64,000 nt of DNA from Chloroflexota bacterium (lineage in GTDB: Bacteria > Chloroflexota > Dehalococcoidia > Lucifugimonadales > JACPCL1), in contig JACPCL010000031.1 of the NCBI GenBank assembly GCA_016179765.1, forward strand, positions 64,341 through 128,340, read 5' to 3'. A program made the position numbers and the translations under genes. This document shows, in pieces, positions 2,110 through 62,500 of this stretch. Position 1 is the first letter of the stretch; every line of letters begins with the position of its first letter. The notes beneath the pieces were generated by a model. It made no database searches, was not told the DNA's origin, and was given only the letters and a program-made list of their open reading frames with translations.

Positions 2110-2156
2110 CTTCTCATCCCTTCCCCCTTCCTGGCCAGGAAGGGGGAAGGGGGTTA
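2110..2156. repeat. Palindromic repeat module (M3 type)
   Basis: CCCTTCCCCCTTCCTGGCCAGGAAGGGGGAAGGGGG, the same design as 24450, 28098, 45385 and 49160. Confidence 0.7.
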
Positions 2157-3797
2157 GGTCGCCCTCACTCTGTCCATCTGGTACGCGGCGTCGCCGTCCA
2201 CGTGGACGACGACTGGCGCGTTGTCCGCCACCGCCTCGCGTATCGCAGAGGGGAACTTGTTCACATCGGTCACGTGGATGCCCTTGACGCCAAAGCTCCT
2301 GGCAAGGGCCACGTAGTCCGGATTGACCAGCTCGGTGCCGATGACGTTGCCCTTGAAGCGGGTCAACTGGTCATCGTTGGAGGCGCCGTAGCGGTGGTTG
2401 TCAAAGATGACGGTGACCAGGTTAATCTTGTACTGCACCGCCGTCGCCAGCTCGCCGATGGCGTAGTTGAAGCCGCCGTCGCCCGTCAGGGAGAGGACTG
2501 GCGTGTTGGGGTTGCCAACCTTTGCGCCCAGGGCCGTGGGGAAGCCGTAGCCCAGGGTCCCCATGTAGGAGGAGGTGACCAGGGTCCGTGGCTTGAGGGT
2601 AGCGAAGGCTGAGCCGGCCCACCTGTCCGCGCCGGTGATGCCGCCAACGACTATCGTGTCCTCCGGCAGGTCCTTGCGCACCTGCTCCCATACGTTGTAC
2701 GGAGCAGGGCGCTGGTTGCGCATGGCATCCTCGTCCCGCTTCTTCAGCGCCGCCACAGCCTGCTTGTCCCAGGACGCCTGGATGCGGCGGCCACTCAGCG
2801 CCTGCCCTATCTGACCCAGGCCAACCTTGGCGTCGGCCACAACGCCGACGGTTGGCTGCATGATAAGCTTGTTGCTGAACTCCGTGTCGTCTATGTCCAG
2901 GTGAATCAGGACCTGCTTGGGCTTCGGGGCCCAATCAGCCGTCGGGGGGATGTTGAAGCGAGTGCCGACGGCGAAGATGACGTCGGCCTGGCCCATCAGG
3001 TCGGCGACGGCCGAGCCCGGCACTCCAAAGCTTGCCGCATTAAGCACCATGGGGTTGGTGTCCGGTATCGCGCCCTTGCCCTCCCGCGTCAGGACCACGG
3101 GAGCACCCAGGGCCTCGGCGACGCGGCGTAGCTCCTGATGAGCGCCCGCGAGGTTCACGCCGCCGCCCGCCCAGATCAGGGGATGCCTGGCGGAGGCCAG
3201 GTGGCCGGCGACCGTGCGCAGGGCGTCGTCGGCGATGGAGGGGCGAGGATACTCCTCAGGCTCAACGGTCCGGATATCGGCGACGGTTGCAAGGGTGTCG
3301 GGCGGTATCTCAATCTCCACCGGACGGGGCCTGCCGGTCTTGATCTGGTGTATCGCCTCATGGATTCCCTCTGGGATGTCCTGGGCCTTGATGACGCGGT
3401 CCTGCCACTTGGTGACTGGCTTCATGAACTCCATCTGGTCGTGCACTTCGTGCAGAGCGCCCCGGCCAGTGCCGATGAGGTTGCTGTCTATCTGGCCGGA
3501 GATCATGAGGACGGGAGAGGAGGCTGCATAGGCGGTGGCCAGGGCAGCGCCAGCGTTGTAGGCGCCTGGGCCGGGCACAATCAGGCACACGCCCAGCTTG
3601 CCGGTGGTGCGGGCGTAGCCATCGGCCATGTAGGCGGTGGTCTGCTCGTGGCGGGTGGTGATGACCCGGATACCCGGCTGCGTAAAGAACCCGTTGTAGA
3701 TGTGCATAATCTGCACGCCCGGCAGACCGAACACCACCTCCACCCCCTCGGCCAGGAGCTGTTTGATGACTGCCTCGCCGCCGGTCATCTGAGCCAT
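2154..3797 (-). CDS. Thiamine-pyrophosphate-dependent enzyme, acetolactate-synthase-like
   Basis: 547 aa: GGEAVIKQLLAEGVEVVFGLPG...HEQTTAYMADGYARTTGKLGVCLIVPGPGAYN...LTGDGGFNY. Confidence 0.8.
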   Translation of the reverse strand: MAQMTGGEAVIKQLLAEGVEVVFGLPGVQIMHIYNGFFTQPGIRVITTRHEQTTAYMADGYARTTGKLGVCLIVPGPGAYNAGAALATAYAASSPVLMISGQIDSNLIGTGRGALHEVHDQMEFMKPVTKWQDRVIKAQDIPEGIHEAIHQIKTGRPRPVEIEIPPDTLATVADIRTVEPEEYPRPSIADDALRTVAGHLASARHPLIWAGGGVNLAGAHQELRRVAEALGAPVVLTREGKGAIPDTNPMVLNAASFGVPGSAVADLMGQADVIFAVGTRFNIPPTADWAPKPKQVLIHLDIDDTEFSNKLIMQPTVGVVADAKVGLGQIGQALSGRRIQASWDKQAVAALKKRDEDAMRNQRPAPYNVWEQVRKDLPEDTIVVGGITGADRWAGSAFATLKPRTLVTSSYMGTLGYGFPTALGAKVGNPNTPVLSLTGDGGFNYAIGELATAVQYKINLVTVIFDNHRYGASNDDQLTRFKGNVIGTELVNPDYVALARSFGVKGIHVTDVNKFPSAIREAVADNAPVVVHVDGDAAYQMDRVRAT

Positions 3798-3933
3798 AAG
3801 GGACCTCCTAGATTGATTGTCAGCTTGAGAAACCAGCGCCCAGAGGGTAACACAGGGGGAGGGGAAATGGTAGGGTGGCGAGGGGCGGGGGGCTCCATGA
3901 AACCGATCCGGTCCGATGTGTTCAGAATGGCAT

Positions 3934-4821
3934 TCATTGTGCTCCTCTAGCCCATTGTAAATCCCGACCTATCAAGAGTTCGGTCATCTGAACATTATGG
4001 GTATTTTTCATGGGGATCACTTCAATATCAAACCTATGATCTTGTGCTAATCTCTGAGCTTCCAAAGTATTGTCATATGTCATAAGAAAATCGCCTCGCA
4101 AAGTTTCAACTACGTTAAACAACTCTTCGTGGTTCAGGTCATTGTAACGGTAGAGACGTTTCCCTGCTTTTTTCCCCCCGGCAGTATAAGGGGGATCAAT
4201 AAAAAATATGGCATCCTCTTGTGTGGCTTTCTGTCGCAAAAGTGGCACTCCATCACCTTCAATAAAGTCAATCCTATCCTTAATGGCCGCTATGTCCAAT
4301 ATTCGTTTGCGGAGAGTTGCAGGATACCACCGCGACTTGATGCCTTTCCCATTTTCACCGCTCTTGATCACGCCACTGCCAGGTGCAAGAATACCTCCAT
4401 GATTCACTCTGTTCTTAAGCAGGGTTTGAAAAGCCTTCTCTTTAGGATCAGCATATTCTGTGTCTAGAACACTTCTCACTGACTCAAAAGACACATCAAA
4501 TGAGGTTATTTTATTAGCTAGCCATTCGGCGGAGTCCCCGAGAATAGCCTTCCAAACAGCAGCGACTTGGTCATCGAGTTCTGCCAGGACTACCTTAGAA
4601 GCCCAAGCCTCAAATGCCACCGTTAATCCTACGATGCCACCTCCAGCAAAGGGTTCTAGGAACTCCTTTGCTGGTCTTTGCTTCTGAGCAAGCCACTGCC
4701 TGACCAAGGGAACGAACCATGTCTTGCCCCCCGGGTAACGGAAAGGACTCCTCTGGGGAACAGAGGCAACATTCACCACCCGGTGCTGTTCGCCAATAGC
4801 AGGCAATTGTAGCTGCACCAT
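3934..4821 (-). CDS. D12-class (Dam-like) N6-adenine DNA methyltransferase
   Basis: FRYPGGKTWFVP, FLEPFAGGGIVGL and FFIDPPYT motifs. The region is visibly AT-rich compared with its flanks. Confidence 0.85.
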   Translation of the reverse strand: MVQLQLPAIGEQHRVVNVASVPQRSPFRYPGGKTWFVPLVRQWLAQKQRPAKEFLEPFAGGGIVGLTVAFEAWASKVVLAELDDQVAAVWKAILGDSAEWLANKITSFDVSFESVRSVLDTEYADPKEKAFQTLLKNRVNHGGILAPGSGVIKSGENGKGIKSRWYPATLRKRILDIAAIKDRIDFIEGDGVPLLRQKATQEDAIFFIDPPYTAGGKKAGKRLYRYNDLNHEELFNVVETLRGDFLMTYDNTLEAQRLAQDHRFDIEVIPMKNTHNVQMTELLIGRDLQWARGAQ

Positions 4822-4826
4822 GGTTC

Positions 4827-61949: not shown

Positions 61950-62393
61950 ATGCCCTGGAAAAAGGTGCTCCTCCCCGTCCATGGCAACGATACCGACCCG
62001 AAGGCTTTGCGCCTGGCTTGCGATCTGACAAGAGACGCCAAGGGCAGCGTCTATCTGGTGTACGTTATTGAAGTGCCCCACCACCTTCCCCTGGACTCAG
62101 ACCTTCCCACGGAGAGCAGCAACGCGGAAGAGACCCTCCATCGGATGGAGGAGCTGGGCAAGGAGTACAAGACCGGCGTGGAAGCGGTGATGCTCCAGGC
62201 GCGAGAGGCGGGCCCCGCCATCGTACAAGAGGCCGTGGAGCGCGAGGTGGACCTCATCCTTCTTGCCCTCCCCTACCAGTTGCAGCACGGCAGCTTCTCC
62301 CTGGGCAAGGCGGCGCCCCATGTGCTCAAGTACGCCCCATGCCCGGTACTCCTGTGGCGGTTGGAGTTAACTCCTCCGGGCAACGGCACCTAG
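61950..62393 (+). CDS. Universal stress protein family
   Basis: KKVLLPVHGNDTDPKAL...DLILLA...VLKYAPCPVLL. Confidence 0.85.
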   Translation: MPWKKVLLPVHGNDTDPKALRLACDLTRDAKGSVYLVYVIEVPHHLPLDSDLPTESSNAEETLHRMEELGKEYKTGVEAVMLQAREAGPAIVQEAVEREVDLILLALPYQLQHGSFSLGKAAPHVLKYAPCPVLLWRLELTPPGNGT

Positions 62394-62407
62394 CAGGGAA
62401 AGGAACC

Positions 62408-62448
62408 GAGAGTATCTGGGCGCTGCTTCGCAGCGCCCAGATACTCTC
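62408..62448 (+). terminator. Long perfect hairpin after usp
   Basis: GAGAGTATCTGGGCGCTGC-TTC-GCAGCGCCCAGATACTCTC, with no U tract. Confidence 0.5.
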
Positions 62449-62454
62449 AACAAA

Positions 62455-62500
62455 ACATCCCCCTCTCCGAGTCGGAGAGGGGGATACAGGGGGAGAGGTC
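62455..62500. repeat. Palindromic repeat module (M4)
   Basis: CCCCCTCTCCGAGTCGGAGAGGGGGATACAGGGGGAGAGGTC. Confidence 0.8.

Follow-up and report, generated by a model that had tools for sequence, protein, structure and literature searches.

The intergenic gaps of a 64,000-nt stretch of DNA from a Chloroflexota bacterium (Lucifugimonadales; JACPCL1; contig JACPCL010000031.1, positions 64,341-128,340, forward strand; hereafter the window) hold many short palindromic repeats, which raises the question of what kind of element they belong to and how they came to lie there. A sequence-only reading of this DNA had listed eight hairpin motifs (M1-M8) and taken them for shuffled modules of a single family resembling MITEs (miniature transposable elements bounded by inverted repeats). 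We found instead that the dominant repeats are mostly decayed copies of one non-coding MITE of ~143 bp, hereafter the main MITE, in which M1, M2, M3 and M4 are hairpins in fixed order on one scaffold, and that the set as a whole is mixed: M5 belongs to a second family, M7 and an 81-nt array correspond to repetitive extragenic palindromes (REPs) with a GTAG tag, and M6 and M8 are small nested hairpins. Both MITEs and REPs are well known in bacteria.

All eight motifs are indeed present in the window, whose G+C content is 64%, and none would be expected there by chance. When counted against chance expectation, M1 (TCTGGGGGACACCCCCAGA, up to two mismatches allowed) has 7 matches where 0.01 are expected, M2 has 7 (0.03 expected), M3 has 4 (0 expected), M8 has 5 (0.06 expected), and M4 has two exact matches (0 expected) besides degenerate copies in repeat families D2 and D4; M5 occurs as one contiguous copy plus three arms split by a nested hairpin, and M6 and M7 are both seen. 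M1 or one of its halves was found at all ten positions previously given for it, with an offset of 1-3 nt, three of these, at 24421, 24536 and 45878, being degenerate or half copies. The intergenic DNA (10.95 kb) holds 60 hairpins with perfect stems of 7 bp or more, vs 52 in 53 kb of genic DNA. On a gene map built from codon-position G+C and Pfam, the repeats do not fill nearly every long gap, contrary to what had been proposed: about 15 of the 35 gaps of 60 nt or more have them, and the long gaps at 9157-9577, 35029-35429, 40426-40744, 53276-53529 and 59056-59657 are repeat-free. Nor are all gap hairpins repeats, several long ones being unique and terminator-like. The motifs are nonetheless clearly over-represented, and the element described below is sharply bounded. 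Three independent short-read contigs reproduce the window at 99.9-100% identity, all of them ending within repeats, and short contigs of the same strain, which break off inside repeats, are the sole matches to the window's own proteins.

In its canonical form, the main MITE begins after a TA with a 16-bp inverted repeat, GCAGGGTGCTGAAAAA, and a spacer closed by ACCATCCCCCTG, continues with hairpin B (CCCCCTTCC..GGAAGGGGG), to which M3 and M4 belong, a spacer rich in A/T, the M1 hairpin, invariant and with CCCC(C/T)G, and the sequence-variable hairpin D, and finishes with CTGGACTCCCC, the inverse repeat and TA. The scaffold order is therefore terminal inverted repeat (TIR), hairpin B, M1, hairpin D, TIR; aligned composites from the window, the majority of them truncated, run variable hairpin, M2, GGATTTGTA, M1, CCCCCGCCA, variable hairpin, TGGACTCCCCTTTTT. 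Searching for the paired ends GCAGGGTGCTGAAAAA and TTTTTCAGCACCCTGC yielded 48 two-ended copies in related genomes, whose spacing has its mode at 143 bp and lies at 140-149 bp in 29 of the 48 pairs. Variants reach 250 bp, which is under the size limit of ~300 bp for MITEs, and contain no consistent open reading frame (ORF). Over the 143 bp, an alignment of 32 non-identical copies has a mean column identity of 80%. Copies of the main subfamily are too alike for covariation analysis; their consensus is predicted to fold into an end-to-end closing stem with three hairpins (B, M1 and D) at -67.7 kcal/mol (z = -3.7). The term MITE-like was thus apt for the dominant family, which combines 16-bp TIRs, TA flanks, a modal length of 143 bp, many copies and the absence of coding capacity.

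To place the family taxonomically, the 22-nt M1 string was scanned in bacteria and archaea, taking one genome per species. The exact 22-mer is found in at least 108 stretches from at least 34 assemblies, at least 32 of which are Chloroflexota, mostly Dehalococcoidia. Among the matches listed, the Chloroflexota bearing M1 are uncultivated and originate from such sites as groundwater, Lake Baikal, the Black Sea and the Arabian Sea; two complete chromosomes (OZ252215.1 and OY970386.1) are among them. Related loci, 739 kb in total, served for the profile, end and transposase searches: an nhmmer profile built from the 32-copy alignment has 174 matches there at E<=1e-3 (163 at E<=1e-5), and in the window it detects 11 significant copies or fragments along with several weak solo hairpin-B units. 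Two of the matches to the 22-mer lie in Streptomyces (L020 and L093), where the surroundings are unrelated and the element profile fails to match; these look like chance occurrences. The 22-mer is also present once in a Leptolyngbyaceae metagenome-assembled genome (L069), this time with the element profile matching, and this copy could reflect binning contamination or horizontal transfer. No M1 was found in the viral contigs scanned, and blastn matched the consensus to nothing among plasmids and phages. In the lineage of the window, a variant has hairpin B swapped for two other hairpins, one of which is M2; M2 is present in 3 related loci vs 63 for hairpin B, and, among the related loci, the closest copy outside the window is in JACQUO01 (L096). 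The sequence strings of M1 and M5 were found in no searchable paper, literature searches on MITEs in Chloroflexi returned nothing relevant, and the family is a hitherto undescribed member of a well-known class of elements.

The boundaries of the element carry a clear signature. TIRs had been inferred from the composite beginning at 38444, and this stands: the 16-mer GCAGGCTGCGGAAGAA is there. Its inverse, however, lies at 24610-24625 and not at 24612-24627, and at 31485-31500 the plus strand reads GCAGGCTGCGGAAGAA itself, not the inverse, since this is the other end of a copy in opposite orientation, which leaves the TIR inference intact. As to the proposed check for target-site duplications, TA is present on both flanks of 36 of 47 copies, and joined flanks revealed no exact empty site (see below). 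The outer flanking base is C on the left in 33 of 47 copies and G on the right in 37, giving the context C-TA|element|TA-G. IS630 and ISY100 are reported to insert into TA, preferably in CTAG, with duplication of the TA (PMC2170065; Tenzen 1990, 1991 cited therein), and TA insertion with duplication is general Tc1/mariner behaviour (PMC2170065); the flank statistics of the main MITE agree with this TA insertion and with the CTAG preference documented for IS630 (PMC2170065). Relative to the upstream gene, 34 copies are in sense and 56 in antisense orientation, and the presence of both orientations near genes fits insertion at the DNA level. Comparison with JACQOS01 points the same way: the rpmI-rplT spacer is ~60 nt and element-free there (L024) vs 273 nt with an element in the window, and the MoeA stop lies in an unoccupied CTAG (L014) at the very stop codon where the window element begins. 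JACQOS01 is distant, at ~70-74% nucleotide identity, and for this reason the exact insertion boundaries are unreadable.

The element ends are also associated with stop codons. About a quarter of them adjoin the stop codon of a long ORF: 28 of 108 TA-flanked ends lie directly against an ORF of 150 codons or more when the TA+G frame is read, vs 7 and 11 in the two control frames. In 32 of 32 aligned copies the element starts with G or A, and because its first base is always a purine (R), TA+R is always a stop codon. In the window, stops rebuilt in this way are those of a HAD gene (38442-38444) and of MoeA (56984-56986), and the MITE-MoeA junction at 56986 was found again in an independent contig (L111). 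The frame test favours a TA that was present before insertion. In a genome of 64% G+C, the TA and CTAG sites that tolerate insertion would concentrate at stop codons, and an element starting with a purine would rebuild the stop, so that insertions at gene ends would be harmless and would accumulate. We suggest that this is why the repeats pile up just 3' of genes, operons included.

Based on these data, most of the repeats are probably copies and fragments of a MITE superfamily specific to Chloroflexota of the Dehalococcoidia type and moved in trans by a transposase of the IS630/Tc1-mariner type. Such a DDE transposase, encoded elsewhere, would excise the element and insert it at the TA of C-TA-G targets, duplicating that TA. 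Copies would thereafter decay, lose their ends, receive smaller hairpins (M6, M8) and end up side by side, and it is this combination of decay, nested invasion and adjacency that would give the look of shuffled modules. Several points weigh against this reading. A joined-flank search for empty sites in all related loci returned only other repeats; both ends are kept in only 1 of the 11 window copies; and the TA could formally belong to the inverted repeat instead of being a duplication. As the sequence-only reading had stated, the window contains no transposase, in that none of the ORFs tested matches a Pfam transposase family, and the 739 kb of related loci yielded none whose ends match, so that the assignment to IS630 derives solely from the target signature. 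In these loci no transposase emerged from inverted-repeat pairs 0.5-3 kb apart, considered as autonomous elements, from de novo inverted repeats 0.7-2.6 kb apart, or from multi-copy protein families. A stray end of subfamily S3 in L108 was considered as part of an autonomous element and discarded: it adjoins a RecF-like gene, with no transposase.

A last point against the transposase-driven reading is that the M1 interior shows stronger conservation than the inverted repeats do and is common to subfamilies with unrelated repeats. Ordinary MITEs conserve their ends, not their interiors, and a conserved interior is not expected of a simple parasitic MITE. An identical core, TATCTGGGGGACACCCCCAGACCCC, is present in at least four subfamilies with unrelated ends, namely S1 (GCAGGGTGCTGAAAAA), S2 (AGCTATTCGGGAAAC), S3 (GTTCCCACACAGGTTGTTTAC, TA-flanked too) and S4 (TTGCACAtAAAGTC); a low-G+C relative of S1 has the ends GAGACTGCTGAAATAG, and the core is identical in high-G+C and low-G+C Dehalococcoidia. 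Hairpin D keeps a fixed position 6-10 nt downstream of M1 with ~60 different stems in 139 copies. Possible causes of this conservation include a site used by a protein of the host or by an accessory protein of a transposase, by analogy with the site for IHF in Correia elements, cruciforms helping the 143-bp element to bring its ends together, an RNA-processing site, and recombination at the shared 19-mer making chimeras. We tentatively entertain the idea, which we hold to be possible but not probable, that the M1 core and hairpin D constitute a functional cassette with a conserved partner and that the purine-first ends are adapted to stops, in which case these would be partly domesticated, class-wide "stop-codon-safe" MITEs; the candidate partner would then be an architectural protein of the host, an accessory protein of a transposase or an enzyme that processes RNA.

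Could the composites primarily be RNA or DNA structures that have a function and are retained by the host, for example as attenuators, as sites of processing or protein binding, or as stabilisers of mRNA 3' ends, with their spread being secondary? Their predicted folds are very stable, the M1 core is invariant, hairpin D holds its place through all its different stems, copies lie within transcribed units (the 23S-tRNA and rpmI-rplT spacers), and the orientation bias is mild but present (56 vs 34). However, the repeats match no family of Rfam 15 even at E<=1, only the 23S rRNA and tRNA-Met being matched in the window; copies occur in both orientations, orthologous spacers in relatives lack them, and both the inverted repeats and the TA flanks speak for insertion. 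Nor did a scan for terminators and promoters show enrichment, terminator-like sites numbering 8 vs 10.1 expected in 36-50 kb. We accordingly consider this explanation unlikely. The main MITE was also assessed as an intrinsic terminator and rejected in that role, given this lack of enrichment and the position of its T5 run, which comes 11 nt after hairpin D and not directly at the stem.

It is rather less probable still that the whole set is a REP system, i.e. GTAG/CGTC-headed palindromes organized as bacterial interspersed mosaic elements (BIMEs) or REPINs and spread by a REP-associated tyrosine transposase (RAYT), even if the repeats are short, G+C-rich extragenic palindromes lying chiefly downstream of genes. 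Genuine GTAG REPs, in inverted pairs and a tandem array, do exist at 36674-37021, the related loci are rich in GTAGGGGC (42 matches, spread over 29 loci), and GTAG REPs have been reported in Chloroflexi (PMC3733652). The main-family hairpins behave otherwise: M1, M2 and hairpins B and D lack a conserved GTAG/CGTC head, M1 being preceded by TA, AA, AG or GT; they stand in fixed order between 16-bp inverted repeats flanked by TA; and no Y1 transposase was detected with Pfam among the window ORFs tested. Given the missing tag, the TIRs and the TA flanks, a REP/RAYT origin fits only M7 and the 81-nt array. As for hairpins that arose in place, for instance as terminators under G+C pressure, and then converged, or for assembly artefacts, we find either scarcely credible. 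Several gap hairpins are unique and flanked by A/T tracts (14858-14904, 40446-40483, 47482-47520, 57601-57647 and 62408-62448), as such an origin would have it, but convergence cannot yield an exact 22-nt identity across so many stretches and assemblies, or the column identity seen over 143 bp, and an artefact would not recur in three independent assemblies that repeat the sequence almost letter for letter.

Among known systems, the Correia/NEMIS elements of Neisseria resemble the main MITE in several respects: they are ~100-155 bp long with TIRs and TA at their termini, have many intergenic copies, fold into a long stem with a conserved internal site (the IHF site in Correia), have no identified transposase, and are often co-transcribed with neighbouring genes (PMC2229807). 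In contrast, the sequence and the host phylum of the main MITE are unrelated, its interior consists of three perfect hairpins, G+C-rich and with an invariant core of 23 nt, it spans many species of a class instead of one genus, and its ends show the association with stop codons described above. The pneumococcal RUP, thought to be moved by IS630-Spn1 (PMC2229807), shares with IS630 and ISY100 the targeting and duplication of TA, which the flanks of the main MITE suggest as well, and the CTAG preference of IS630 fits C-TA|..|TA-G; however, whereas the RUP inverted repeats match a resident IS630 copy, no IS630 transposase or matching insertion sequence was found for the main MITE in the window or the 739 kb. 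REP, BIME and REPIN repeats resemble the subset at 36674-37021, which likewise consists of extragenic palindromes downstream of genes with a GTAG tag and inverted pairs (PMC3733652, PMC2817692), and differ from the main MITE, which has TIRs, TA flanks, a fixed multi-hairpin order and no tag. Finally, the palindromic elements of Rickettsia include units fused into genes (PMC2229807), as do the repeats here in nrdJ and the C-terminal extension of infC; unlike in Rickettsia, intragenic copies are exceptional here, and their insertion relative to homologues is putative.

The copies and units located in the window are collected in Table 1.

Table 1. Coordinates of main MITE copies, solo hairpin-B units and other repeats in the window; E-values and profile positions are those of the nhmmer element profile.
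Feature	Position	Strand	Details
Main MITE, sole window copy with both ends	38444..38596	+	153 bp; E=1e-23, profile 1-142; hairpin B replaced by AACCCGCC..GGCGGGTT and M2 (lineage variant); TA at 38442-38443 and 38597-38598; left TA + G is the HAD gene stop codon
Near-complete MITE	13231..13362	+	Left TIR GCAAGCTGCTGAAGAA after TA; right TIR lost; E=4e-21, profile 2-130; M8 unit 13378-13404 lies 3' of it
Inverted truncated MITE	24390..24501	-	M6 hairpin, degenerate M1 (TCTGGGGTGTCCCCAGA), hairpin B (M3); E=6e-15; shares gap with next copy
MITE right two-thirds	24516..24625	+	Degenerate M1, M2-type hairpin, nested M8; right TIR TTCTTCCGCAGCCTGC at 24610-24625; E=5e-13
MITE core (B, M1, D) without TIRs	28093..28191	+	Spacer between tRNA-Met and 23S rRNA 3' end; E=4e-17
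MITE right half with TIR	31485..31568	-	TIR 31485-31500, TA 31483-31484; upstream of 23S rRNA; E=6e-18
Truncated MITE core	45450..45522	-	M4-type hairpin B and M1 variant TCTAGGGGACACCCCTAGA; downstream of nrdJ; E=3e-11
MITE fragment	45877..45934	-	Half M1 and hairpin B; E=9e-06; M8 unit at 45854-45880
MITE right half with TIR	56986..57063	-	TIR GCGGTGTGATGAAAAA begins at G of MoeA stop TAG (56984-56986); E=6e-17
MITE right two-thirds	58102..58198	+	M2, M1, M2-type hairpin D, TIR 58181-58196, TA 58197-58198; E=1e-17
Solo hairpin-B unit	2116..2160	.	CCCTTCCCCCTTCCTGGCCAGGAAGGGGGAAGGG; E=3e-07
Solo hairpin-B unit	36548..36595	+	Directly 5' of aroC start codon; weak profile match, E=0.02; family D7
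Solo hairpin-B unit	45376..45419	+	ACCTAACCCCCTG and CCCCCCTTCCC..GGGAAGGGGGG; begins right after nrdJ stop; E=8e-03; family D7
Solo hairpin-B unit	46107..46176	-	GGGGGAGAGGTAAGGAGG tail; 5' of ORF 46206; E=0.02; families D2, D4
Solo M4-type hairpin-B unit	62436..62506	-	ATCCCCCTCTCCGAGTCGGAGAGGGGGAT; between Usp gene and TrkA gene
Hairpin-B-type unit in nrdJ reading frame	44732..44774	+	Encodes LSPSPLMGEGRGEG; family D2
Second MITE-like family	45993..46126	+	134 bp; ends GTCATTCTGAGCGCAGCGAAGAATCT and inverse; nested M6 in right arm
Second-family (GTCATT) copy	42502..42647	+	GTCCTTC..GAAGGAC hairpin splits both arms at same site
M8 unit	37140..37166	+	GAGCCTGCCCTGAGCCTGCCGAAGGGA; family D17; others at 13378, 24568(-), 42776(-), 45854
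GTAG-tagged REP cluster	36674..37021	.	Single units 36674-36698 and 36749-36776 (M7); family D3
Three tandem 81-nt units	36783-37025		Each a REP pair in inverted orientation (BIME/REPIN-like)

The copy at 58102..58198 sits between rpmI and rplT, within the infC-rpmI-rplT cluster. A further feature of some solo hairpin-B units is that those at 36548-36595, 42698-42741, 45482-45548, 46123-46205 and 62453-62509 end in GGGGGAGAGGT(A/C)A, which is Shine-Dalgarno-like, and that all five point to a start codon: four lie ~10-40 nt 5' of the start (aroC, ORF 45549, ORF 46206 and TrkA 62510), and the fifth ~100 nt 5' of nrdJ.

Concerning the other repeats that share the gaps, a second MITE-like family, whose ends read GTCATT...AATGAC, has M5 as its terminal repeat. 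Its members are ~100-135 bp long, each end consisting of GTCATT-NN-GAG, an optional hairpin and CGAAG-NN-AATC; the NN positions co-vary (ATTCT/AGAAT, ATTGC/GCAAT, ATCCT/AGGAT), and the arms hold nested M6-type hairpins at a fixed site. M8 has the loop motif CTGAGCGnAGCGAAG, as in the M5 family, on a CCCT/AGGG stem, and was found as an insert of ~27 nt within main MITE copies. In L017, a locus from a Black Sea member of the Dehalococcoidales, the M1 hairpin around positions 48-120 is split by an insert of ~50 nt with a perfect GTCATTCTGTAAGAATGAC palindrome, which suggests that tiny hairpins can themselves insert into other repeats. M7, its neighbouring unit and the 81-nt array match the definition of REP/BIME repeats, which by analogy would make them of the kind mobilised by RAYT (PMC3733652, PMC2817692). 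In addition to the five A/T-flanked hairpins mentioned above, unique perfect hairpins are found at 27961-27990 and 37343-37372; the stems of all seven are of 13-22 bp, several have A-tract/T-tract flanks, and to judge from their sequence they are probably true bidirectional terminators, separate from the repeat families.

Some of the host genes around the repeats deserve mention. In the stretch 28007-31250, the 23S rRNA gene (28280-31200) lies on the minus strand with tRNA-Met after it, and 5S and 16S rRNA genes were not found in the window. The flanks of the 23S gene at 28233-28279 and 31201-31247 appear complementary by eye and resemble a stem used in processing; on both sides, MITE cores come just beyond this putative stem. 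Within nrdJ (42847-45375), which encodes a B12-dependent ribonucleotide reductase, the in-frame unit at 44732-44774 places its peptide in the linker between the reductase barrel and TSCPD, in a C-terminal extension that has no counterpart in a solved homologue by structure comparison. At the 3' end of infC (58561-58636), the IF3 ORF runs with a C-terminal tail of ~24 residues, VPAAGRPPQADVASPAKPTPAEAS, through an M2-like hairpin at 58599-58623. The 1.5 kb between nrdR and the reductase gene (41306-42846) is of lower G+C and has few long ORFs; no riboswitch or other Rfam match was found in it, and its repeats are confined to the last 350 nt.

Elsewhere, the chorismate synthase gene (35430-36537, minus strand) has its first 24 codons (MFRYFTAGESHG..., ATG at 36537) in another frame than the rest, and the ORF matches only Pfam positions 67-326, ~40 codons being apparently gone; either the gene is a pseudogene or the assembly is in error here. 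A low-G+C island at 3934-5813 (49.5% vs ~64%) encodes an N6-adenine DNA methyltransferase of the D12 class and a restriction endonuclease of the NotI family, and is probably a horizontally acquired restriction-modification system. Finally, two 64-nt stretches at 572-635 and 1355-1418 (family D9) are 89% identical and encode the starts of two adjacent minus-strand genes, whose N-termini are PurH/MGS-like by eye; the two are apparently tandem paralogues.

The family extends a known class and opens no new one. In practice, these elements give rise to spurious ORFs, cause short-read assemblies to break at M1, and risk being taken for regulatory RNAs in metagenome-assembled Dehalococcoidia genomes, the annotation of which a 143-bp profile would tidy. 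An interior that is more conserved than the ends points to a protein or RNA partner worth seeking. More broadly, the family illustrates how a transposon that targets TA can prosper where G+C is high, stop codons offering it places to land safely.

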